DNA of 64,000 bases from Sphaerodactylus townsendi (taxonomy: Eukaryota), in contig NC_059425.1 in assembly GCF_021028975.2 (NCBI RefSeq), positions 102,734,001 to 102,798,000 of the forward strand, in the 5' to 3' direction. This document shows, piece by piece, positions 1 to 46,539 of the stretch. The notes beneath the pieces are model-generated. The model did no database searches and had not been told where the DNA came from. It saw nothing but the letters and a program-made list of their open reading frames with translations. How positions within the stretch are numbered: the stretch's first letter is position 1; every line of letters begins with the position of its first letter. A program made the translations under genes and the position numbers.

Positions 1-715
1 TCCTGCTCTCTTTCCCCCGTTTGGACTGGAGAGCTTATCCCAGTCCAAACAGGCGAGAGAAAAGGGGGCGGCAAGCAATTCCTTGCCTTTCTTTTCTCTG
101 CTCTTCCCGTTTGGACTGGAGAGCTTATCCCAGTCCAAACAGGCGAGAGAAAAGGGCGGCAGTCAGGGTTCTCTGTTCTCCCTGCTCGTTTGGACTGGAG
201 AGCTTATCCCAGTCCAAACAGGCGAGAGAAGTAAGCAAGGCAGCAGGTGGTGGTGGTGGGGCAGCTAGGCACTTCTGTCTTTTTTTTCCGCTCAGTTTGG
301 ACTGGAGACCTTATCCCAGTCCAAACAGGCGTGAGAGAGAAGGGGGCAGCCAGGCTCTCTACCTTCTCCTCATTCCTCTTTCCCTGTTCTGGATTCGCCG
401 GGGAGAGTTTATCCCAGTCCAAACAGGCGAGAGAAAGGGGGGGGGGGGGGCAGCCAGGCTCCCTTCTGCTCTTCTCCCCGTTTTGGACACTGTGAGAGTT
501 TTATCCCAGTCCAAACAGGCGAGAGGTGCAAGCATTAGGTTCTCTGCTCTTCTTTCCTTAGCTCTTTGGACTGGAGAGTTTATCCCAGTCCAAACAGGCA
601 AGGAGAGAGAAAAAAGGGCGGCAGGTGGGGCGCAGCCAGGTGCTCCTTCTGCTCTTCCTCTTCTCTCCCGTTTGGACTGGAGAGCTTATCCCGGTCCAAA
701 CAGGCGAGCGAAAAC
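1..715. repeat. Tandem array of ~80-107 bp units with a conserved palindromic core (8 copies visible; may continue past the window edge)
   Basis: Core GTTTGGACTGG-AGAGCTTATC-CCAGTCCAAAC at ~19, 109, 188, 295, 386 (degenerate), 480 (degenerate), 564, 670, followed by AGGCGAGAGAAA-like sequence and variable GC/CT-rich linkers. Confidence 0.95.
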
Positions 716-1189
716 GGCACCACATTCTAGCTTAATATTTTATTGTTCAGACCTCAGATGTTTCTCATAAGTCTTAAGCAGTTCTGGTGTGCCCTGCTGT
801 CACGTTGGAGGCCAAACCCAAAATGTAGGAAGATGTAAAATTTCTAGAAATTTTGAAGGCATAAATTCAGTGGGAGGGGACTATAGACAATACTTCCCTA
901 TCAAACCTAAACTTTTTACCGATATAACATAAAATCAGGAAAAAGCGAAAGTATTGGTTAGCTGTATTACTCTGCATAGGAATTCATGGCATAAGAAGTC
1001 ACAAAAGTTCATATACTAGAACAGATTTTTGTTAATCTGTATAATGCCTCAAAAGATAACTTGTACTCCCATTAGTAAGCAATGTCGAAAAGTGCCTGGA
1101 ATATCACATAAATAATAGTTGCATATCCTTGAAAGAAGGGACACTAAGCAAGAGACCCTTTAAAAGCCCTTGAAGCATGCACTCTTTAT

Positions 1190-1810
1190 CACCCTTCCGC
1201 ATCCGCCTGGCTAAAAAGCACACTTTGCTGTCACATGATCCTTGGTCGGGCGGCGCCACGGACCTACGCAAGTGACATTGCGCAACTCCGCTCTATCTTC
1301 CGCCCTCTAGCGGCGGAGAGAGTGAATCAAGGCACAACTTCTCTAGACTGCTAGTCCGGAGGGTTCTTAAAGGGCCAGGCCTCTCCCATGCTGTTCCGTT
1401 TCGGGGTAATTTTGCCCGCCAGGCTGGCAGAAGGCGGCACGGCGCTATGTCTGTCAGGCTCGCGCCCGGAGCTGGGTCACTGGGACCCTCAGCACGCCTT
1501 GACCATGAAGCCGGCGCGGCCACTAGCTCCTCTGCCTGCTCAAGAACCGGTGCTGTGGCTCACGGAGGTGGCCCTTCCCGAAGAAGAGGCCGCGTGCACG
1601 TTCTGGTACAAGTTCCTCAGGCGGCACGAGACGGGGGAGACAGTCTGGGAAGGTAACGGCCCAATCAGGACAGGCGCCGCCCGACTCGTCTTTCTGAATG
1701 GCGCGCATCTGAGGCTAGAATCTGAGGCTAGAGCGTGTGAAGCCACCTGCCCCTCCTCTGTCCTGTCCACTAGCCCTGTAGGGGACGTGACAGCTACTGC
1801 CATGCGCAGT
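1190..1810 (+). promoter_or_regulatory. CpG-island promoter of EPM2A
   Basis: CpG-rich stretch spanning the start codon. Motif matches: GTCACATGAT E-box (1230-1239), GC-box-like GGGCGG (~1248), ATTGCGCAAC C/EBP-like (1277-1286), CCGCCCTCTAGCGGC CTCF-like (1300-1314), CCAATCAG (1661-1668), NRF1-like GCCATGCGCA (~1799-1808). Confidence 0.75.
1388..1652 (+). CDS. EPM2A: EPM2A coding exon 1 (CBM20 N-terminal part)
   Basis: ATG at 1388; [10 protein letters not shown]...LGHWDP...FWYKFLRR...VWEG; donor GAAG|GTAACG with GT at 1653; phase 1. Confidence 0.96.
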
Positions 1811-2126
1811 AAGGATAAAGGGGAGGAGCAGTTAGTAAGCTAACACGGTAGTAAAACATATACGTTATATAACCACAAATATGTTGCCTTGCCATACAAT
1901 ATCCAGAACGTCACCTACTGAGCACTCCTTCAGCTTCCAAATCTTGACTAACTAGGCATTCTTTCTGTGCAATAGAAAAGTTTTATTGCGCAGTCTCATG
2001 GCCAGAAATTTCTGTTGTGGGGGAAGGTGGGACAGACAATAGGGGAAGGCAGCCTGCCATACCACAGGTCTGGTTTAGCACAGCTGCAAGCCAGTTTGTA
2101 GTGCAATGACTTTATAGTATTTTACC

Positions 2127-2166
<40 letters not shown>

Positions 2167-5100
2167 CAATTTGTGTGCATTGCCAACCGTTCCTTCAGTC
2201 TCAGGACAGCTTCCAACATAAATTCACAATCCAATTAAAATCCCATATTGCACTTCTACTTAGAAATAAATACTGTGACTGCTTTCCAATTAAGTATATG
2301 GTATAATAGAAATACAGTCTGCTAAAGCTCTCAGTAAATTAAAGGACGGCAGGTGGGGGGGGGGCAGCCAGGCTCCTCTGCCTTTCCTTCCCCGTTTGAA
2401 CTGGAGAGCTTATCCCTGTCCAAACAGGCAAGAGAAAAGGGCGGCAGGTGTGTGTGTGGGGCAGCCAGGGAGCCCTCTGTTCTCTTTTTCTCCCGTTTGG
2501 ACTGGAGACCTTATCCCAGTCCAAACAGGCGAGAGAAAAGGGCGGCAGGTGGGGGGGGGGGGCAGCCAGGCTCCTCTGCCTTTCCTTCCCCCGTTTGGAC
2601 TGGAGAGCTTATCCCAGTCCAAACAGACGAGAGAAAAGGGGGCGGCAGGGGGTGGGGGGCAGCCAGGTCTCCTCCCCCACCCCACACTCTCATTTCACTA
2701 CAGGGACAGACACAGTAATAATCATATAGATTGTTTATTTTTAGGAACATTACTGATATTATGTATTCATTGATTTTAATTGCAGATACTTTTGTTTGGA
2801 ACTCAAGTGAATAAATTCTGGGCAGCACACCTAATTTGGCCCTGGAGCCTTCAAAACCTATGTTGTTTACCGTGAGCCTGTTGTGTTTTTAGTGAGTCAT
2901 AATTGCCATTTCTTCCTATTTGCTAACTTCTAAAAACGTTTATTCTTCCTCATATATCATTCCTCCAGACTTACTCAAAAGGTTTTTAAATCAGAATCTT
3001 CAGTCTTTTTAAGCTTATTATTCCCACAAGATGGCACTATATTACTTGAGTACAAGCAAAAACTCTGTTTTTCTTATATAGAGTAGCACCATGAAAGCTT
3101 AATCAACTTTTACTGCAATCTATTCAGTGTTTTTGTTGTTGATGCTAAAAAGTAAATTTTACCTATTTTAATTTTGTTGTTTTCATTCCTTTTAATAAGT
3201 GAAAAAATATTAGGCCTTTATACACTTTCAGATGCAAGGAAATCTTGATAGGACAGAACAGAAATCAACCAAAAATCTGTCACAGAACCATTTTTTCCCA
3301 TGTGTGTATAATTACACAATACATTTGTGCCGGAAATTAACATTTTGCAGTGATATATAATGATGTAATGCCATATCAATATTGAATGCAACAATTAAAC
3401 AGTCATATGAGAGTCCCTTGACATGAACTGAGCTTGAGATTCAAGATGGTTTAAGAACTGCTTACAATTGGTTTATGCAAGTTCTTCATTTTGACAGCAA
3501 AGGGATCATTACTTGCTGAACAGATCTGGATATTACACATACTGTGAGCATTCTGTCTGTCAATCTCTGAGTAGCTCAGGTGCATGGGTCTGTCATGCTG
3601 CATTTTATCGTAACAACAACATGGTGAGATTCACAGTGTGCCTGGCATAAAAGAAACCTATGTCCAGATGGGGGAGCCAATGGCCTTGCAAGTGCTTGCC
3701 AGTCCGGTGCTGGGTTAGACTACAATGAGGGATAGCTGCCCATGGAAATTTAGTCAAATATTTGGGCTTTGAACCACATGCTGCCAGTGAGTAGGGTTGG
3801 CTGATCTGGGTTGGGAAATACCTGGAGATCTTGGGGGTACACCCTTAGAAAGGCGGGATTTGGGGAAGGGCTTCAATGGAGTAGAATGCCATAGAGTCCA
3901 TCTTCCAAAGCAGCCATTTTTTCCAGGGGAACTGACCTCTGTCTATGATCTCTGGAGATCAATTGTAATCATAGGAGATCTCCAGCCACCATTTGGAGGT
4001 TGGCAACCCTACCTGTGGGTTAGATGTTGTATACACATGGCAATTTGCTTTCTTGGTTTGCATGTTTCTTCATGAAAACATTAGAATTAATAGAAATTGC
4101 TGTATATCAGACTGTTTATGTTTTCCAAATGTGGACAGATTTTTGATAGATTTCCAGATCCAAGCCACCGTTTCTCACATGTCCTTACAGGAAAACTCCA
4201 TATTCAGGGAAGCATCTGAAGTCACTGAGAAACATCTACAGGGTTTTTTTGTCAATTCCCTACCCTCTAGTTCAGGGGTCAGCAACCTTTACCACCCAAA
4301 GAGCCATTTGAACCCATTTTCCATGGCCCTGAAGATCTACTGAGCTGGAGAGGCGGCTCCACTCCAGTTTGGCCCCTCCACTCACCTTTCCTTCCAGCCC
4401 TGGGAGGCAGATGCGCCGGGCAGGGAAACCCCCTCTGCCCTACGGAGCAGGCAGCCGCCTGCTCCGTGGGGCAGAGGGGGGGATGGCGGCCACAGCCTGC
4501 CCAGTGCCACCACCTCTCGCGCTGCGGGAGGCAGTGGCTCCGTGGGGCAGAGGGGGGATGGTGGCTCCAGCCTGCCTGGTGCTGCCACATCTCGCACTGC
4601 AGAAGGCAGAGGAGGCAGGCAGAAAAAACCCCTCTGCCCGATGGAGCAGGCAGCTGTCTGCTCTGTGGGGCAAAGGGGGGATGGTGGCTGCAGGGATGGC
4701 AGGGGGGATGGCGGCTGCTCTGGAGGGACATGCCCACGCTACCCTCTGACCTCCAGGGCTCGTCCCTCCAGAGCAATGCTGGAAGGAGAGGGGAGGGGAG
4801 GGGACACGAAAAGCAGCACCTTCACGCACAGAGCCACCTCCGGTTCGGCCCTCCATTCACCTTTCCTTCCAGCGCTGCTCTGGAGGGCTGGAGGGACATG
4901 CCACACTACCCTCCGACCTCCAGGCCATGTGGAGCTGCAGTATAAGGCTGAAAGAGCTGCATGCGGCTTCGGAGCCACAGGTTGCGGACCCCTGCTCTAG
5001 TTCATAGGAAAAGAATATAGAAGTATGGGACAGAACTGAAAGGGATAGGGTCTGAGGTAAGGAGACAAAGGGAAGAAAAACAGAAGCAAGGGTGTCAGTA

Positions 5101-23100: not shown

Positions 23101-26100
23101 CCAAGCAAGTATTTTCAGTATGTGTTTTATTAATGGCTTATATATAAAATTAAGCTCATTTATTATTATTTTAGACAAAATATCCAGTATATTTCCTGGG
23201 AAACCTTTGGAAGTCTAGCATATTTATGCACTTTCAGAAAGCTCATTAGAGTAAGTGTTTTGAGAAATTAGTTTACATACCATTGAGTTTTACATAAGGG
23301 ACCTGGTTTTGAAACATTACTTTCAGGAATTGGGCTTGAAGAAGGTGATCTGAAATAACAACCTATCCAGAAGTTATATCGTCCTAATTATATACATTGA
23401 GAATATATATATATTTTGTTGGACATGTTCACAGCAGAAGATCAGGGTTTGTAAGAGGCTTCTACTGCATATGATAATAGTTTTGTTAATGAGACAAAAT
23501 CAGAGAACATGTTGTTAATTGTGTTTATTGAGAAATATCAATACAGTCTACTTAGCTGGATTATCTTGAGTTATTATCTGTAAAAATAAAGAGGAAGAGT
23601 TATTTAAGTGACTATATTAGTTAGGTGTTAATGCACCTTTATATATTTTGGTGCAACATGGCATTTACTTAAACTTCTAGGTGGGATCTGAAGATCTCTT
23701 AGAATTGGAGAAAATTGTTGCTTTGGAGTATAAACTGTGGTTCTGCCCCTCCCTAAACCCCTCCCTCCCTATATTTTTTAAACACTTTGGTTTCATGCAC
23801 ATAAATTATATTGGAATTTTGTGTGTTATTTTTTTCAGGCAATGGACCTCACCATGATCGATGCAGTGTTTATAATCCAAGCAACTTGGTTGATGGAGTT
23901 TACTGCCTTCCAATAGGGCACTGGATTGAAGTTTCTGGACATACTGATGAGATGAAACATACAACTGACTTTTATTTTAATATAGCTGGACATCAAGCTA
24001 TTCACTACTCCAGGTAAAAATACATACAGAATGAAGTACTAATTATTTTAGGATTTTTGGGGGGGCGGGGGGGGTATTTGAGGAAGAAGATAGAAGGGAA
24101 TTAACAGCATGATATATTGAGCATATTACTCAAAATAAGTTTACTTCCATAGAACTTACTCCCTAACTATTGTGCCTAGGATTGAAGGCATAGCTCTTCA
24201 TCTCTAGCTGGGCACATAAAGAACTTGTTCTGCACTTAGCTGATGGCACAATAAGCTTCCTTATGGTCACACACAGCTAGCAGCACCTTAGAGACATACT
24301 TTCACAACATGGCTGCAGTTATAAAGACCAGGAACTTACATTTTATATAATGTAAGGAGTTAACAGGTACACATCTGTATTTCTAGTGATCTTAGTCTCC
24401 TATAAGAGAGAAAGAAGGGATATAAATCCAAAACTCTTCTTAGAAGACAGTTTTTGAATGCTTATATGAAGAATTAAACAAATTTACTTACTAGACAGGT
24501 CAATAGTTAGGAATCTGTCAGTATGAAAATCTGCTCAGATAGTTTACTTATGAAACTCTATAAACCTCTGACATTATGTGGTTTGTTAATTTTAACAGTG
24601 AATGCTGTTTGCTTTATTTGAATATCAAACGGGAGTCCATGCTTTCTAGTATATAATACATATATTATGTCTGGTCAACAAGATTTTGAATGGCATTTTA
24701 TAAAACCTTTATAAAATGCAGTTCAATATGTTGACTGATATAGGTAATTACAAATGCCAGGTAAATGTAAAAAACAAATGAGATGAGATAAGGAACCTGC
24801 TATCAGACAGGAATGATCCAAGTCACAAGCTGTCAGTAGAAGTAGAACCCAGAGTCATATTCAGCAAGCTGGGCAGCCGTAAATATCAGATTGGAAGGCT
24901 GGTACAATGCCAGGAGGATATTACTCTTAGATGAGCCAAAGTTGTTTTTTTTATATAAATTAGGCCAAGAAGTTGTAATAATGCAGGTACAAAATGCTTC
25001 CTGGCATCTTTAGTAACTGAGGATGACTAACATAAAACAAACTAGGTGGAGCTGTGAGTTCACCATATGCCAAAACTTGCTCTTTAAATATTCTTCTCTG
25101 TAAAATTTGATTGAGTTGTAACTAATGCCTAGCAAAAGTTATATAATAAAGCAGAAGGAATATCATACTCCTTATTTTGCATGACAATTCTCATGTATGA
25201 AGGAGAAACCACTGGTGTATGTACAGTTGTGGATTTTGAAAGGAAGCAGAAAAGACAGATTTGCCACTTTGTATTAAGGAGCTAACACTTGGTAAAAGAG
25301 AAGACTCAAATTAAGATTTAATGAAATGTGACCTTTTTGATAGGCTTGGTTTATTTCAAGTCTGTGTAAAAGTCACAGCAATGTATATATATAACTTTCC
25401 CAGCTACATAACTTTATAATCCCAGTCTAGTTCTAATTACACAGAACAGCAAATTGGCCATTCCCATATGCCCTACTAGGCACAAGAAGCCAGGTTAAGG
25501 GGAACTGGATGAGCATTGTGGTGCAGGTGCATATTCTCACTTGCCATGTGAACAATACTTCTGCATGGAAATCTGTGTTGCTAAATCAGAGGTTTTGTGT
25601 TTCACACAAAAAATACTTTATCAAATGAAGAATAGAAACTAGTAATTATTTAAAATAGCAAAGGAATCAGTAGATGGTAGTCTGAACTCAGATGCAGCCA
25701 GTAGATAACTGTTGTGTGATTCACCAGATTCCACTTATGCTCTCAATCCAGTGTTGTGTAGTGGTTAAGAGCAGGTTCACTCTAATCTGGAGAACTGGGT
25801 TTGATTCCCCACTCTGCCCCTTGAGCTGTGGAGGCTTACCTGGTGAACCAGGTTAGTTTGTGCACTCCAACACATGCCAGCTAGGTGACCTTGGGCTAGT
25901 CACAGTTCTTTGGCGCTCTCTCAGCCCCACCTACCTCACAGGGTATTTGTTGTGAGGGGGAAGGGAAAGGAACTTGTAAGCCTCTTTGATTCTCCTTACA
26001 GAAAATATTTCCTCCTCCTCCTCCTCCTCCTCCTCCTCCTCCTCCTCCTCCTCCTCCTTCTTCTTCTTCTTCTTCTTCTTCTTCTTCTTCTTCTTTTTCA

Positions 26101-38100: not shown

Positions 38101-41100
38101 AGTCTTCTAACATTTTTTTAACAACATCCCCAATTGTAATTAGTGCTTTCTGGAATAGAGAGATATCCAGTGTGACTAAACAGCTAACTTCAAAATATAG
38201 CGGGTGTAGTCAGAAAGGGATATTATTTTCTTGACAGCTAGATTTCTTGATTTTTTGGAAAGAAAAATAAAGAATATAATGAAAAACTGTTGTTTATCAT
38301 ATCTGTGTTGATTTTCTGAAGTGTTCTAGTAAAAAACATCAAGTTACTATCAAGATAATAGTGAGAGGGAACAAATTATTTTAGCAGGCTTATTTACGTC
38401 TATGGAAGTCTGAACAGTTGTTTCCTTGCTGCTTATGATAACTTTTAACAACCAATGGACCAGTTGGTTTTAATGAACCAATGTATACGTGGTGTAACCA
38501 GGAGGCCTCTGTCAAATCCCTCCCCCCACCCCGGGTTCCCTTTGGTTGTCTGTCAGTGTCACCTTATGCTCTTTGCATGTGTTTACTCACATTTTTTTCT
38601 GCTGGAACAGTAGGTTATCATCCCCATGACTGCCACAACAAGATTACCAAGATGAGAGCACTGTATTAACTAAGTAAAAATGGATTACCACAAGTATGTA
38701 CAGCCTGTTCAGTAATGTATGCTGCTATTGCAGCCATAGCTATGCTTCTTGTTATATGCAGTATTTTAACATATTTATCCCTGACAGAATTTTGCCAAAT
38801 CTATGGCTGGGAAGTTGCCCTCGTCAAGTGGAGCATGTGACTGTGAAGCTAAAACATGAGTTGGGGATTACAGCTATAATGAACTTCCAGACTGAATGGG
38901 ATATTGTTCAGAATTCTTGGGGGTGTAACCGCTATCCAGAACCTATGACCCCAGAAGTTCTCATGAAGTTGTACAAAGAAGAAGGCCTTGCTTATGTCTG
39001 GATGCCAACTCCAGACATGAGTACAGAAGGTAATGCTTAGATTGTACTATCAGCAAAATATGCTGGAGAAACAAAAATCTGTCAAGAATATATCTGCATC
39101 ATGTGAATAATTGGCTATAACATTCATGTTACTGTTATCCCCATGCAAATAGTTCAGAGATTAATAAGCCATATACGAGATGTTTTGCTCCTTGGCTATG
39201 CCTTGATCCTGCATTTATTACCTTTTGGCTTGCTCTGCATCTCTGTGAATCATGGCTAGTCTGTTTGCTTGTTCCTTGCATTTGCTTTTAGTTCTCCTCA
39301 TATCCTGTTATACCACATTTGAACATTCACTTCTTCATTTTCAAACATGGTTATAGTGAACCTGGCTTGTTTTCTAAAAGTAAAACCCATCAATTACTAC
39401 TAATCTTAATTAAAATATATTAAAAGCCTGAAATAAAAACTGATGAGTCTTACTCCATCTCTTTTATCAAAAGTAATTTAAATAATTAACTGTACTTAAC
39501 TTACAGTGTTACCCTCACCAAAGTTACACCTTTGGGACAATTTTGAGTAAAGAAAAAATAGATGAGAAAAGTAATGGGTATGGGGGGAGGGGGGACTGAG
39601 GCAACTGTCCACTGCACTGGGGAATGTTTAATCCTCCATCTCTTCTGTGGATTCTTTATATCCCAATAGTTCACATTAGGTAAAAAGGGGCACACAAGCT
39701 TTAATTAAAGGATCTCTTATTTGGAAACCTGCTAGACCAAGTCTATTTATGAGGTAATTAGAAATCAGTTTTTCATCAATATTTGACTAGAGAATGTTTA
39801 TTTAACAGAAATGTTTATTTAACAGAAAATAAAGTATTAAACATGCTAAGGATTTTTTGTGGAAATGCTTAGAAGATCAGCTTCACTTCCATAGGTTACA
39901 GTTTTTTCCAAACAAAAAGTAACCATTTGATATCTGAACTTCAGTTAATGTAAATAAACCTGAAGGGCAGTTTGATTCCACTTACACCAGAAAGGCTGCC
40001 TCAGTTTAACAGGTTTCACTGGAACCGATTTCCATAAAAGACAGGATCCTTTCCAGTCTCAAAGTTGCTTTTTTCACACAACAAACTCCTGTCTACAGAA
40101 CCTGCACATGCAAGTTAAGAACATTGGGTCCTTATCAGGATGTTTATATGGCTAACTGAAACAACTCCCCTCCACAAGCCTACTCCAAACCCTAACTAAA
40201 AGCCTAATAAAAACCCAACTGATGCTCAGAGCCACCAAAACTCCCTGTTTGCCACTTGAGGGCAAGATCGGTACTACTCAGAGTCCCCAAACCACAATAA
40301 TGAGACAATGCTCTTGTCTGTGGGGTAAAAATTCTGGCCATAGTCAAACTGTTTTATTGACAAAGGATGAAAAGAAGCATGAGGTGCAGCATAGGATCTG
40401 ATCTGTACACTGGGCAGCCCAAATGCTGTCCCCCCCAGTGAAACTGTTAACCTTGCTCAGCACTTGTGGAACTCAGCTGGGCAGAAGGCCTCTAGCTGGA
40501 GATCTGTTTTGCATAGCACAGTAATAGTGGAACTCAGTTGGGCGGATGGCCTCTTGCTGAAGAACTGTTTTACTGCTAAGGGGCACAAGCCTCAGTAGCT
40601 CTCACCTAGGTGTTCCTGACTCATGGCTTGGTCCACCCCAAACCTCTGAAGGAGTTACCACCAAAGAGGGTGGCTCCCCAGCTCCCCTCACTATCAGATC
40701 AGATCCCATGCGCAACCCGCCGACCTGGCTATGACAGCGAACACATGCATTAGCATTGTCCAAGGGGGAGAGGTAGGTGGGAAACTTATTGCCGCCACAC
40801 ATGAAAAGAAGGGGCCCAGGGCCGCGTGAAGCCTTATAAAGGCTCTCAGCCAGCCCCTCTTGATGACATCATGACGCCATGCTGGTGTCACAATGTCTTC
40901 GCCCATAATGGGCATAGCCGCTGCCTGCCTTCCACGCTTCTAAGAGCTGTGTTTTGATTTTTTGAAGTGTTTTCTTTTGTATTTCATATTTTTGTTTTGT
41001 ATTAATGTAATAGTAGTGTGAAAGTATATATGGTTTTTGTGCATGTTGAGGAAATTTAAAAATATACATTAAATTAATTGTTACTCATAACTGCAAGATT

Positions 41101-44100: not shown

Positions 44101-46539
44101 TCTATCCCTCCTTACAGTGTTGTTATCAGGATACATATGATAAGAACTGCACAGCACTTTGTAAATTTGAAGATGCAACAAAAATTATTAACAGTCTGTG
44201 ACCTTTGACATCCCAGTTAATGTAGCCATTTTAATAGAAGCAGCTACATAGTGTATGAAGTGAAAGTCATTTAGATATCAAACAGTATTCAAATTACACT
44301 TCAACACTGTGCTACAACAGCATTGCAATGTTATGCATTTTCTCTTTCTCTCTTCCATAATTTTGGCCAATCGCTTACTTCAGGCAGTCATATTTCATGG
44401 TGAAGCTGACTTGTTTGGTAGGAAGTAAGCAAAAATATTAAACTTAAAAGAGCATCTGATATATAATTGGACTGGTAACAAGCACTATATTTGCAGGAGG
44501 TCTTTAAGCAATGATTTATATTTTTATATCATCAGTGGAATTTTTAGTACATTTGTCTAAATTGTCTCCAATCAGCATATATTTAACATTCTTTGCAAGA
44601 AAAGTTGTCTTGAAAAACATCAGTAGATTGGTTTTTTTACCAATTATACTAAACTAAATGAAACTTTTGGGTTTGTGTTGGCAGAAATCTTATTCAAGTC
44701 TTTAAAAATTATAATAAGTTGGAAGGCATTTAAGTGGCTTCAGATATAAACTGCAAATGAAAGGGTTTTTACCTCTATGAATAAAAGAATAACAAACCTT
44801 TAAAGAAAAAGTTTGTGTAGGCATCTGGCCCAACCTGCCTATCTATCTACTGTTGATATACCTGGGGCAGTATATGCTAAGGTCACTCATCACTTGATTC
44901 AATTTATTGAGGCAAATAATGTTGTGAACAGCTGTAGATGTTTCACTCCAAGTGTGGAAGTACTCATATACATGAGCTCCTTCCAGACCCTCCATATAAT
45001 ATGTATGATGTACAATAGCCCAGGCTAGACTCATCTCATCTGCTGAGCAGGGTCAGCTCTGGTTAGTACTCAGATGAGAAATCTCATAGGAAGTGTAGGG
45101 CTGCTACGCAGAGGCAGTCAAGGGCATACTGCCTCTGAATATCTCTTGCCCTGAAATCTGTATGAGGTTGCAATAAGTCAGCTGAAATTTAATGGCAAAA
45201 AAAGGAGCAGCAGTGGCGTAGGAGGTTAAGAGCTCGTGTATCTAATCTGGAGGAACCGAGTTTGATTCCCAGCTCTGCCACCTGAGCTGTGGAGGCTTAT
45301 CTGGGGAATTCAGATTAGCCTGTACACTCCCACACACACCAGCTAGGTGACCTTGGGCTAGTCACAGCTTCTCGGAGCTCTCTCAGCCCCACCTACCTCA
45401 CAGGGTGTTTGTTGTGAGGGGGGAAGGGCAAGGAGATTGTAAGCCCCTTTGAGTCTCCTACAGGAGAGAAAGAGGGGATATAAATCCAAACTCTTCTTCT
45501 TCCAGTCCTTGAACTCTTTAAGGAGCAATAGTAGAAAGAATGCTAACAGTGGTACACTTTATTTTTCTGGAGCAAGTCCTATTGTCCTGAAGTGTTTGAA
45601 AACCACTGCTTTCAGATTAAGAATGGCTGGTAAAAATGCAGAAATGAGGTAACTCTTAATCTCTCCAACATGTATTTGCTTTGTAGTCACCATAAAGTAC
45701 AATCCATTTAGGACTGGTTTGTTTGAATGGTTATTGAACACATGGTTTCTACATTGGGTCATTCCTTTATATATACAGGATGGGACACATGTTAATTGTC
45801 ATAGTGGAACATCAAAAAGAGGATATTAAATGGGTGTCATAGGTAGAAACACAAATATGGGGGTACAAAACTGCTTGAAAAAAATAATGTGTCACTTTAA
45901 AGAATTGTTGAGTTGTTGCTCAGTCTAGCAAACAAAGTTGTACACTGATATCCTAGGACTCAGCCTATTATATTGCCTAGGGCAAGATTCCTAGAAAAGG
46001 CTGCAGTTTGAAAACCCAGAAACTGGCTCTTCTGCAAATCCTTGGCTTGTCATTATAATGCAGTCCCTTAGTGCAAGTCACAAGATGAAAAGTGTATGTG
46101 TGTGTGTGTGTGGGGGGGGGGGTGTTAAACCAATGAAAATGTGAACTATATATAGCTTGATCTGAATCTATGTTTACATAGCTCAGTGAAGTTAAAGATA
46201 TAATATTGACAAAGCTTACTAGGGTTTTTTGGCATGTATTTGACAGTTCTGTTTTTATTCATAGGTAGAGTACAGATGTTGCCTCAGGCTGTCTGTCTCC
46301 TCCATGGGTTGCTGGAGAACGGGCACACTGTCTACGTTCATTGCAATGCAGGTGTTGGCAGGTCCACAGCTGCAGTTTGTGGCTGGTTAAAATATGTGCT
46401 GGGATGGAATTTGAGGAAAGTGCAGTATTTTGTGGCTTCCCGAAGAGCAGCCATCTACATTGACGAAGAAGCTCTCATGTCTGCTGAGGAGGATTTCTTT
46501 CAGAAATTTGGATCTCTTCATTCTTCATGCAAGCCTTAA
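1388..46539 (+). CDS. EPM2A: Laforin (glucan phosphatase), spliced CDS join(1388..1652,23839..24013,38788..39029,46265..46539), 318 aa
   Basis: Exons of 265+175+242+275 = 957 nt splice in frame at GT-AG sites. N-terminal CBM20 ([33 protein letters not shown]) is followed by a DSP domain with HCNAGVGRS, the recognisable laforin sequence. Confidence 0.98.
2128..2166. repeat. (GTT)n microsatellite
   Basis: Direct read. Confidence 0.95.
2346..2680. repeat. Second array of the same hairpin repeat (3 cores), in intron 1
   Basis: Cores at 2394, 2495, 2593, same orientation as the upstream array. Confidence 0.95.
3792..4011. mobile_element. Non-autonomous hAT-type MITE (TAGGGTTG...CAACCCTA termini)
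   Basis: Terminal inverted repeats; degenerate 8-bp TSD CCAGTGAG/CCTGTGGG. Confidence 0.75.
4273..4994. mobile_element. Non-autonomous hAT (Charlie-like) element with GC-rich internal tandem repeats
   Basis: TIRs CAGGGGTCAGCAACC / GGTTGCGGACCCCTG; perfect 8-bp TSD CTCTAGTT (4265-4272, 4995-5002); internal repeats GTGGGGCAGAGGGGGGATGG. Confidence 0.9.
5570..6425 (-). mobile_element. L1-clade LINE 3' fragment (ORF2 C-terminus and 3' UTR), decayed
   Basis: Minus strand reads [17 protein letters not shown]...CWKCQE...FFHMW*TC, the ORF2 CCHC region, followed by a T-rich UTR. Confidence 0.75.
8521..9627 (+). mobile_element. Young 5'-truncated CR1 LINE (RT C-terminus, 3' UTR, (TTCTTATG)n tail)
   Basis: ORF 8535-9065: [45 protein letters not shown]; frameshift in an A-run near 9035; octamer tail. 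Confidence 0.95.
11861..11985 (-). mobile_element. LINE 3' end with (ATTCT)n tail, probably Rex/Babar-like
   Basis: (ATAGA)n followed by TCTTTATTGGCCAAGTGTGATTGGACACACAAGGAATTTG; family assigned from recall only. Confidence 0.5.
12755..12982 (-). mobile_element. Decayed tRNA-headed SINE
   Basis: Reverse complement begins TAGTGGTTAAGAGCAATGCACTCTAATCTGGAGAACCAGATTTGATT (A/B boxes), matching the heads at 25750 and 45205. Confidence 0.7.
13045..13255 (-). mobile_element. 5S rRNA-derived SINE (SINE3 / 5S-Sauria-like)
   Basis: Reverse complement CAGGCTAGCCTGATCTTATTAGAACTTGAAAGCTAAGCAGGGTCAGCC resembles the 5S rRNA internal promoter region. Confidence 0.65.
13330..13890 (+). mobile_element. Probable L1 3' remnant containing a ~68-bp tandem duplication with (TA)n(GA)n
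   Basis: [14 protein letters not shown]-like ORF2 end; CAATGAAATGAA..GTTATATATA..GAGAGAGA occurs twice (13461, 13529). Confidence 0.45.
15094..17108 (+). mobile_element. Penelope-like retroelement (RT + GIY-YIG endonuclease), decayed, with inverted pLTR segment at the left end
   Basis: [69 protein letters not shown]; 15094-15163 is the reverse complement of the pLTR end; 13-bp TSD TTACAGAACAACT (15081-15093, 17109-17121). Confidence 0.93.
17016..17056 (+). ncRNA. Minimal type-I hammerhead ribozyme motif (Penelope pLTR)
   Basis: CCT-CTGAAGA-T-GCC(AGCCACAGATGCA)GGC-GAAAC-GTT-AGG: both core boxes, stem II, and stem I CCT/AGG. Confidence 0.7.
17130..17925 (+). mobile_element. L2-clade LINE 3' fragment
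   Basis: [37 protein letters not shown] motifs; T-rich UTR. Confidence 0.8.
19279..20280. mobile_element. Solo-LTR-like insertion in the old CR1
   Basis: 5-bp TSD TCTCC (19274-19278, 20281-20285); ends in ..AGAACA; starts GG rather than TG. Confidence 0.6.
19472..19909. mobile_element. Solo LTR nested in the previous element
   Basis: TGTTGGGGA...TCCTAACA termini; 5-bp TSD AATAT (19467-19471, 19910-19914). Confidence 0.8.
20359..20918 (-). mobile_element. Young CR1 3' fragment (same family as 8521-9627)
   Basis: AAGAACATAAGA tail; [26 protein letters not shown]. Confidence 0.9.
22301..23683. mobile_element. Foldback/long-TIR element (~200-bp imperfect arms) inside a TAGGGTTGCC-type hAT MITE
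   Basis: 22301-22470 plus 22975-23005 is the reverse complement of ~23476-23683 (e.g. TTACAGATAATAACTCAAGATAATCCA / TGGATTATCTTGAGTTATTATCTGTAA). Confidence 0.75.
22473..22974. mobile_element. CpG-rich PIF/Harbinger-like MITE
   Basis: TIRs GGCCGTTTCTGCA / TGCGGAAATGGCC; 3-bp TSD AGG. Confidence 0.85.
23839..24013 (+). CDS. EPM2A: EPM2A exon 2 (end of CBM20 and linker)
   Basis: Acceptor tttttttcag|GC; encodes [59 protein letters not shown]; donor CCAG|GTAAAA; 175 nt. Confidence 0.97.
25750..26003 (+). mobile_element. tRNA-derived Squam3-like SINE
   Basis: GTGTAGTGGTTAAGAGC (A box)..GGTTTGATTCCC (B box)..GTGACCTTGGGCTAGTCAC..CCCCACCTACCTCACAGGG. Confidence 0.85.
26010..26095. repeat. (CCT)n(CTT)n compound microsatellite at the SINE tail
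   Basis: Direct read. Confidence 0.95.
27229..27358. mobile_element. 130-bp palindromic hAT MITE
   Basis: TIRs CAGGGGTAGGGAACCTG / CAGGTTCCCTACCCCTG; 8-bp TSD GTCTAGAG/CTCTAGAG. Confidence 0.92.
27960..30260. mobile_element. Decayed DIRS-like retrotransposon remnant
   Basis: Mutually complementary terminal-type motifs ACTTACCTGTAATTGTTGTTCAT..TCTTCTGTGCAGGCAC (~29915) and GTGCCTGCATAGAAGGCCAC..ATGAACAACATAAGTAAGT (~30210); no intact ORF; left boundary uncertain. Confidence 0.5.
28634..28755 (-). mobile_element. CR1 3' UTR fragment
   Basis: CATAAGAACATAAGAACAAGCCAGCTGGATCAGACC is the reverse complement of the tail at 9580-9627. Confidence 0.9.
30689..30919. mobile_element. Tc1/mariner (Tigger/pogo-like) MITE
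   Basis: TA|CCGTGTTTCCCCGAAAATAAG...CTTATATTCGGGGAAACAGGG|TA. Confidence 0.9.
32351..32559 (-). mobile_element. 5'-truncated Sauria-type SINE
   Basis: GGTAAAAGGTAAAG (ACCTTT-type tail on the minus strand); 14-bp TSD GGCCCCTGCTGTAA (32337-32350, 32560-32573). Confidence 0.75.
32830..34985 (+). mobile_element. Decayed L2-clade LINE (RT region to 3' end) with an unrelated insert at ~33135-33590
   Basis: [52 protein letters not shown] motifs; AATAAA-type end. Confidence 0.75.
35856..36090. mobile_element. hAT-type MITE
   Basis: CAGGGATGCAC...TATGCCTCTG termini; 8-bp TSD CCTTGGAG/CCTTGCAG. Confidence 0.7.
37401..37620. mobile_element. Tc1/mariner (Tigger/pogo-like) MITE, opposite orientation to 30689
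   Basis: TA|CCCTGTTTCCCCAAAAATAAG...TTTTTGGGGAAACACGG|TA. Confidence 0.88.
38788..39029 (+). CDS. EPM2A: EPM2A exon 3 (DSP domain N-terminal half incl. D-loop PDMS)
   Basis: Acceptor ctgacag|A; encodes [43 protein letters not shown]...[11 protein letters not shown]; donor GAAG|GTAATG; 242 nt. Confidence 0.97.
43524..43976 (-). mobile_element. Solo LTR
   Basis: TGTTAGA...TCTGACA termini; 5-bp TSD ATAAC (43519-43523, 43977-43981); minus-strand AATAAA near 43580. Confidence 0.85.
45015..45203 (+). mobile_element. 5S-derived SINE
   Basis: GCTGAGCAGGGTCAGCTCTGGTTAGTACTCAGATGAGA resembles 5S rRNA; A-tail. Confidence 0.65.
45204..45502 (+). mobile_element. Full-length Squam3-like SINE at the tail of the 5S SINE
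   Basis: GGAGCAGCAGTGGCGTAGGAGGTTAAGAGC..GAGTTTGATTCCC..ATAAATCCAAACTCTTCTTCTTC. Confidence 0.88.
46265..46539 (+). CDS. EPM2A: EPM2A exon 4 (catalytic CX5R loop to stop)
   Basis: Acceptor tttttattcatag|GT; encodes [41 protein letters not shown]...SSCKP*; HCNAGVGRS at 46339-46365; TAA ends at 46539. Confidence 0.97.

Follow-up and report, generated by a model that had tools for sequence, protein, structure and literature searches.

Two hairpin arrays flanking the EPM2A promoter of a gecko are probably end-less fragments of the internal tandem repeat of a young hAT transposon

We analysed a 64,000-nucleotide stretch of the Sphaerodactylus townsendi genome (NC_059425.1, positions 102,734,001 to 102,798,000; hereafter the window), in which two arrays of a palindromic repeat lie on either side of the promoter and first exon of EPM2A, which encodes laforin and whose loss causes Lafora disease in humans and dogs. 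We consider it probable that a young hAT transposon carries this unit as its internal tandem repeat and that the arrays at EPM2A are fragments of that repeat lacking the transposon's ends; template switching, in break repair or fork restart, is the likely route by which they were inserted. There is so far no sign that the arrays affect EPM2A, and we regard them as a transposon-internal minisatellite with two orphan copies.

The upstream array starts 347 bp before the window (L013:9654) and its last eight units, of 12, occupy positions 1–722 on the forward strand. It is enclosed by a 143-bp host duplication, the first copy of which lies at L013:9511-9653 and the second at 723–865 (forward strand). 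The CpG-rich promoter and exon-1 region of EPM2A follows at 1200–1800 (GC 0.61, CpG observed/expected 0.76), with coding exon 1 at 1388–1651 on the forward strand, encoding the carbohydrate-binding module (CBM_20, E 2.5e-10), and the donor at 1652. The intronic array (2341–2675, forward strand, sense to EPM2A) comprises 3.4 units of ~100 bp with three hairpins; a (TTG)n microsatellite at 2127–2166 (forward strand), also in intron 1, is unrelated to the arrays. Further downstream are exon 2 (23839–24013, forward strand, end approximate), exon 3 (near 38800–39020) and the last coding exon with the dual-specificity phosphatase active site (46258–46530, bounds approximate, forward strand; DSPc, E 8.9e-11). 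Positions 866–1400 are single-copy in the assembly, and no second copy of the flanks of the arrays was found anywhere in it.

A preliminary description of the window had counted 11 palindromes, eight upstream and three in intron 1, at a period of ~80–107 bp, with the CpG island and exon 1 between them and the intronic hairpins ~700 nt past the first donor. Within the window all of this stands: 11 units, against a mean of 0.11 expected by chance, lie on the same strand at 1–722 and 2341–2675 with spacings of 79–107 bp, the CpG-rich stretch and EPM2A exon 1 lie between the arrays, and the intronic array begins 689 nt beyond the donor. Extension upstream, however, raised the upstream eight to 12, four of them before base 1. 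The 32-bp core, described as near-invariant, is identical to the modal 32-mer in four of the 11 units, but differs by an edit distance of 1–2 in five and of 6 in two; likewise, the 11-bp stem is perfect in six units and imperfect in the remainder. The flanks do extend the stem, as had been proposed, and the extended stem folds (z −2.5 to −3.6 in three clean units), as does the intronic array as RNA (z −2.9); folding of the two units at edit distance 6 was not above that of shuffles.

The hairpin unit is present at nine further loci of the genome, every one of them inside a young hAT DNA transposon or a related element; EPM2A is the tenth. Four of these loci (C4:27.15M, C4:133.23M, C10:3.317M and C3:122.66M) carry unit arrays with one common left end ~0.65 kb before the array, and the five others also lie within relatives of the element. 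Genome-wide mapping thus bears out the option, raised in the preliminary description, of an internal repeat of an unrecognised transposon; it largely agrees with the outcome named there as speaking against a selected unit, except that the copies are few rather than many. Two singletons from a 16-mer search (C7 and C15) lack the palindrome and are chance matches.

The donor element is 7.5–8.1 kb long and holds 0.1–1.9 kb of palindromic tandem array behind its own CpG-rich arm. Both ends were located in four elements, and all four show 8-bp target duplications (three exact, one with one mismatch); copies A, B and D have 12-bp imperfect terminal inverted repeats (9/12 matching), and the left end of copy G is a variant. 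Copy A contains an intact 922-aa transposase frame with DUF4371 and Dimer_Tnp_hAT, scoring 33.1 bits for PF05699 (cut-off 21.4) and 83.1 bits for PF14291, in which what we take to be DDE-type, CxxH and RW motifs are visible; a PDB sequence search with the transposase gave 0 hits. By its inverted ends, 8-bp duplications and dimerisation domain, the donor element belongs to hAT. We gave up reading the left end as Helitron or CACTA once we had the right end, the 8-bp duplications and the hAT domain. The accessible text of PMC3942097 gives the hAT superfamily (Ac, Buster and Tip groups) short terminal inverted repeats, 8-bp target duplications, a hAT dimerisation domain, an element size of 2.5–5 kb and many short non-autonomous derivatives. 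The donor element is alike in its inverted repeats, duplications, domain and short non-autonomous derivatives, but is longer than the range given in that text and carries the palindromic tandem array. The array is not an ancient conserved part of such elements: it was present in none of ten more distant transposase loci (55–76% amino-acid identity), with 10 kb upstream of each examined. A search of openly accessible papers returned nothing about this hAT element, nor about repeats at the EPM2A promoter of any reptile.

The two arrays at EPM2A are, in contrast, not transposons themselves. They have no termini and no 8-bp duplication around the insertion, and across 74 kb we found no transposon sequence other than array units, nor any terminal inverted repeat or hAT end with up to 4 mismatches allowed. 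The earlier statement that no TIR or TSD encloses either array is therefore right for inverted repeats and hAT ends, but a direct repeat, the 143-bp one that could not be seen from the window, does enclose the upstream array. It is unlikely that the arrays are remnants of whole hAT elements, inserted by transposase, that later lost their ends and gene. The family is young and recently mobile enough for this (intact transposase, clean target duplications, 69 left ends), and internally deleted and truncated copies exist in the genome. However, both arrays would have to have lost both flanks precisely to the array edge, with neither the ends nor the left arm nor any post-array sequence surviving in the 74 kb, whereas deleted copies elsewhere retain an end and lose the middle. 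Moreover, a duplication of 143 bp is not a hAT target duplication, given as 8 bp in the accessible text of PMC3942097.

The upstream array consists of 1,069 bp of hAT array, with one copy of the 143-bp host segment just before it and the other directly after; the copies differ at three positions (732, 783 and 797). It starts inside the loop of a unit, with a microhomology of only 1 nt at the left junction, and stops exactly where the hAT array naturally ends on its 3′ side, with the same terminal unit as the donors and CA(T) in common at the return point. Such a pattern is that of templated insertion accompanied by re-replication, a mechanism that we infer purely from the junctions. Having passed the 143-bp segment, synthesis would have switched from the host to a donor resembling the C10:3.317M copy, read 12 units there as far as the end of the array, and come back to the host 143 bp upstream via 2–3 nt of microhomology, so that this host segment was replicated again. 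The intronic array, near which no flanking duplication longer than 6 bp was found, would derive from a donor of this type, either in that episode or in a further local one, and would have had short homology to the unit at each end of the insertion.

Retro-insertions can also be cut at the 5′ side and flanked by a duplication, as the upstream array is, and both arrays are sense to the direction of the transposase. We nevertheless regard delivery of the fragments by an RNA copy of the transposon intron, or by an excised circle of units, as very improbable, because there is no poly-A or other tail at 722, because the usual duplications of target-primed reverse transcription are far shorter than 143 bp, and because a circle of internal units alone would omit the terminal unit, which the upstream array has. 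For templated insertion there is a precedent in the cycles and bridges described as somatic events in human cancers, in which a distant segment is copied in and a host segment re-replicated (PMC7025897, in the portion available). The geometry of the upstream array, with a distant template and a re-replicated host segment, matches that of the cycles described there, although here the event would be germline, in a lizard and from a repeat-array template.

Among potential donors, the C10 array has all nine of the window-array variants scored, copy A two, and copies B and D none; one right-flank variant occurs in 12 of 15 window units versus 2 of 58 other units. In overall identity, the intronic array matches copy B at 86–90% and C10 at no more than 84%. 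Chance sharing of variants is also more likely with the C10 array, given its length and noise. A tree of 69 of the 73 units (four partial or degraded units were omitted) was mostly unresolved, a single clade of window units being neither shown nor rejected (p-AU 0.059). We rejected an origin at EPM2A with later capture by the transposon: divergent subfamilies (period 138–180 bp) occur only inside elements, and the window units group with the youngest, ~97-bp type and include the donor's terminal unit. No orphan array was found away from EPM2A, which is the sole orphan locus.

The upstream array is noisy inside (core identity 0.84, linker 0.62), much like copies C and D, whose non-array arms have 27 and 26 gap openings per ~630 bp, compared with 2 in copy A. 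This noise fits an assembly artefact at one or both arrays, in which the repeat was read into a gap between contigs overlapping by 143 bp. Such an artefact, or the duplication of one array in assembly that had been considered earlier, is disfavoured by short reads from runs X1–X4 of one study (X1 and X3 are one sample, maybe the source of the assembly). Three of the four array junctions were checked and all three were crossed by contigs: the array-to-723 joint in X1 and X3, the 865-to-array joint in X2, and the 2340-to-array joint, left of the intronic array, in X2 and X4. In addition, the allele sets of both 143-bp copies are present in contigs, and the depth of X3 over 733–865, although not a strict copy number, is 120 versus 79 alongside, near the 123 calculated for two copies per haplotype. 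We therefore judge an artefact quite unlikely. Both insertion points remain putative, since no empty allele came to light. One contig of organism B continues without a break from 723 to the intronic array and has 31 unaligned letters ahead of 723. The left junction of the intronic array is shared with organism B, where the upstream array may be absent, and the two arrays may differ in age.

The preliminary description took a conserved stem-loop amid divergent linkers as the sign of a selected binding unit, a view that neither the identity contrast nor covariation supports. The contrast between core and linker is smaller in the clean copy and reversed in one subfamily, and is partly sequence error, because the array interior looks noisy. 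Stem covariation scored 0.118, which slid controls equalled or exceeded (0.119 and 0.136), and the inner 11-bp stem shows one two-sided change in 26 units. Rfam gave 16 weak hits, none near the gathering score; with no Rfam match and covariation at the control level, the units do not look like a conserved structured RNA or miRNA cluster. In favour of a selected element, two orphan arrays lie 1.6 kb apart round one promoter and none was found elsewhere, which is unlikely for independent random events. The units fold well, G-rich windows are common (a G4Hunter-type score of at least 1.5 in 18% of intronic-array windows versus 0.6% in the rest of the window), and the left junction of the intronic array is present in organism B. 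Yet one linked event explains the proximity, the window units are conserved no better than transposon units and some carry stem-breaking changes, and neither window array contains a canonical four-run G4 pattern. A selected regulatory element of EPM2A, acting as a protein-binding cruciform, G-quadruplex or serial RNA hairpins, is thus highly improbable, and the stem probably rides along as a passenger, promoting stalling and turnover of the array.

CRISPR arrays consist of palindromic repeats of ~30 bp at a roughly regular period, and the arrays at EPM2A, earlier called CRISPR-like, are alike in both respects. Their linkers, however, are homologous to one another (0.62–0.82 identical in the window arrays and copy B) rather than unique spacers, and the array belongs to a transposon, in a vertebrate genome. 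Other parallels are oyster Helitrons/Helentrons, with satellite-like arrays inside the element and standalone copies (PMC8268682, PMC7492417), other satellite-like arrays in DNA transposons (reviewed in PMC12692304) and tandem repeats derived from human transposable elements (PMC3389668). As far as the available text of these sources goes, the hAT array is alike in being a tandem array inside a mobile element that also occurs without the element's ends, but differs in that a cut-and-paste hAT whose gene is intact carries it, its repeat is a long hairpin, the loci number only about ten, and the standalone copy retains a breakpoint signature. The step from a transposon's internal minisatellite to a standalone array is usually just inferred in repeat-rich genomes; the present case is low-copy and traceable, with the donor family, a candidate donor and the breakpoint signature visible, and points to a lizard hAT family that is young and whose transposase is intact.

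Since the arrays flank the EPM2A promoter and first exon in direct orientation, deletion alleles are conceivable, although nothing in these data points to an effect on the gene. The geometry allows the recombinational deletion proposed in the preliminary description, but the longest exact match between the two arrays is 56 bp, and no contig joint could be read as such a deletion; joints from 713, 715 and 719 to 2347 or 2355 proved to be ordinary unit-to-unit paths. It is very unlikely, in our view, that the hairpin array acts as a donor-prone module, able to leave its transposon with no help from transposase and to land at open promoters, and that it was kept as a new control of laforin expression or splicing in this gecko lineage. 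In that reading, EPM2A would reproduce the native setting of the array, which lies in sense orientation directly after a CpG-rich promoter and the first donor.

The window, G000:C1:102734001-102798000, holds eleven hairpin units on the same strand, against a chance mean of 0.11, at the places and in the single orientation reported by the preliminary description, at spacings of 79–107 bp. Their palindrome had been called near-invariant. This holds for the four 32-mers identical to the modal sequence (edit distances 0, 0, 0, 1, 6, 6, 2 and 1 upstream; 2, 1 and 0 in the intron) but not for the set as a whole, as only 6 of the 11 have a perfect 11-bp stem and two lie at distance 6. Clean units folded, at z −2.5 to −3.6, with a stem lengthened to ~22 bp; no such fold was obtained for the two damaged units.

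The host gene is EPM2A, since exon 1 (1388–1651) matches CBM_20 and the last exon matches DSPc; exons 2 and 3 we take to lie where peptide motifs place them. Read on from exon 1, the start of intron 1 (1652–1662) encodes G-N-G-P, the same four residues as the exon 1–exon 2 junction (exon 2 side 23839–23850), which is either coincidence or a relic of the intron's origin. A 13-bp tandem duplication just within intron 1 (1707–1732) is absent from organism B.

A genome search with the exact 32-mer gave 15 matches at four loci, and looser searches added six loci (C3:122.66M, C3:20.44M, C4:72.64M, C9:23.36M, C9:64.59M and C13:2.47M), all counts being lower bounds. Nine of the ten unit-bearing loci lie within a hAT element or a relative; the tenth, in the window, is the one orphan detected, with arrays that lack transposon ends. 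The unit is almost certainly a repeat internal to a hAT transposon; the preliminary description had listed the internal repeat of an unrecognised transposon among its options. Copies A (C4:27.15M), B (C4:133.23M), C (C10:3.317M) and D (C3:122.66M) have one common left end, with the array starting ~0.65 kb after it, behind a CpG-rich arm and ~150 bp past a predicted splice donor. Copies A and B have a common right end, 8,136 bp downstream of the start in A and 7,558 bp in B. Target duplications of 8 bp flank A, B, D and G, a short copy at C9:23.36M. Full-length copy A (G000:C4:27146809-27154944; L026:669-3434; minus strand), with an exact duplication, has an open frame for a 922-aa protein that carries DUF4371 and a hAT dimerisation domain; B is frameshifted and C is without its 3′ half. 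The five element loci besides A–D match the left arm or the right end with 61–87% identity and carry 1–6 units of longer period. Copy A and its sister B, 96–97% identical outside the array, possibly represent a lizard DNA transposon active recently; among named relatives of the transposase, those nearest to it are annotated in a gecko and another lizard, and the host is accordingly a lizard. We found no publications on this element in searches confined to the open literature; hAT features were taken from PMC3942097. The array of copy B (L015, C4:133.229-133.230M) is a higher-order repeat, in which one unit, its left half-arm duplicated, comes back three times across 12 units, pointing to recent unequal exchange.

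The window arrays derive from this element. A span of 74 kb that holds them contains neither terminus of the element, nor its left arm, nor its post-array flank. The last unit of the upstream array is the terminal one of the donor and takes the form seen in copy C. Each of the nine variants that were scored in the window arrays is present in C, with two of them also in A and none in B or D, and one right-flank variant is found in 12 of 15 window units versus 2 of 58 others. These shared variants point to a C-like donor, short of proof, because they were picked after the units had been inspected and C is long and noisy. A tree of 69 of the 73 units set long-period subfamilies apart and gave no resolution among the remainder.

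In the ~630 bp non-array arm, copies C and D have 27 and 26 gap openings, versus 2 in A. Identity within the upstream array (core 0.84, linker 0.62) is as low as in C and D; in clean copy B it is 0.96 and 0.82, and in subfamily E of the unit 0.76 and 0.82. Thus, the reported contrast between conserved core and variable linkers is partly sequence error, and the interior sequence of the upstream array is suspect. Compared with clean copies, C and D (L016, C10:3.316-3.322M; L017, C3:122.657-122.663M) are densely marked by small indels of the sort usual in unpolished long reads, and frameshifts there may have arisen in the assembly.

That the arrays are real at the EPM2A locus is very likely. Contigs of four short-read runs from one study were placed on 690–2385, covering the inner junctions and a 143-bp segment; X1 and X3 are one sample of organism A, perhaps the source of the assembly, X2 a second sample and X4 organism B. 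Contigs of X1 and X3 cross the array-to-723 junction, in X2, 865 is followed by 30 letters from the start of the upstream array, and contigs reach 33 (X2) and 41 (X4) letters into the intronic array. X3 contigs break at 733 and again at 865, and depth over the enclosed stretch is 1.5-fold, matching two copies. Weighing against the arrays, no single run among the four gave both upstream junctions. In organism B the upstream array is possibly missing, as the X4 contig runs unbroken from 723, preceded by 31 unaligned letters. In X2 only, contig depth is 52 over 836–2118 versus 20–31 in neighbouring pieces, which could be either a duplication in the X2 sample or library bias to GC-rich DNA.

Templated insertion is the probable route for both arrays. 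The upstream one (12 units, 1,069 bp) starts at L013:9654, before the window, within a unit's loop, and stops at 722. A 143-bp segment of host DNA lies on either side of it as a direct repeat, the two copies differing at three positions. In PMC7025897, 'cycle' insertions place a distant template and re-replicate a host segment; the array resembles these and has microhomology at both ends (2–3 nt at the return point, 1 nt at the exit). The intronic array (2341–2675) has no long flanking duplication; it shares AAAGG with the unit at its left edge and ~9 of 10 letters at its right, and, judged from the filled allele, its target would have resembled the unit at both ends. The two arrays lie 1.6 kb apart and have variants in common, which suggests either a single episode or a second copy made locally. 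Their longest exact match, 56 bp, limits recombinational deletion of promoter and exon 1, a conceivable event that the preliminary description had proposed. Tandem repeats often arise from transposons (PMC3389668), and arrays found both inside DNA transposons and standalone, as here, are known best from oyster Helitrons (PMC8268682, PMC7492417 and PMC12692304).

A host function of the arrays is very improbable. The preliminary description had proposed a selected binding unit; in a set of 26 of the 73 units, selected for being cleaner, pairing holds for 87.5% of cells. The covariation score of 0.118, equalled or exceeded by 6 of 500 shuffles (an excess that relatedness by itself can yield), was not above slid controls (0.119 and 0.136), and the inner stem holds one two-sided change. 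Retention of the palindrome across subfamilies agrees with its serving the transposon or with palindrome self-correction, and does not speak specifically for a host function.

The left-end motif has 69 matches genome-wide. Six of seven further matches sampled share only the first 90–94 bp, the seventh being the C9:64.59M copy; judging from sequence, the short derivatives could be a non-autonomous family movable by this transposase. None of ten more distant transposase loci has a unit array within 10 kb upstream, so the array marks only the young hAT family. Related frames of 680–1040 aa and 59–70% identity (C9:32.93M, C3:8.29M, C3:12.98-13.05M, C4:44.53M and C1:15.95M), either active elements or domesticated genes, include three clustered on C3, and some have coding tandem repeats close to the N-terminus.
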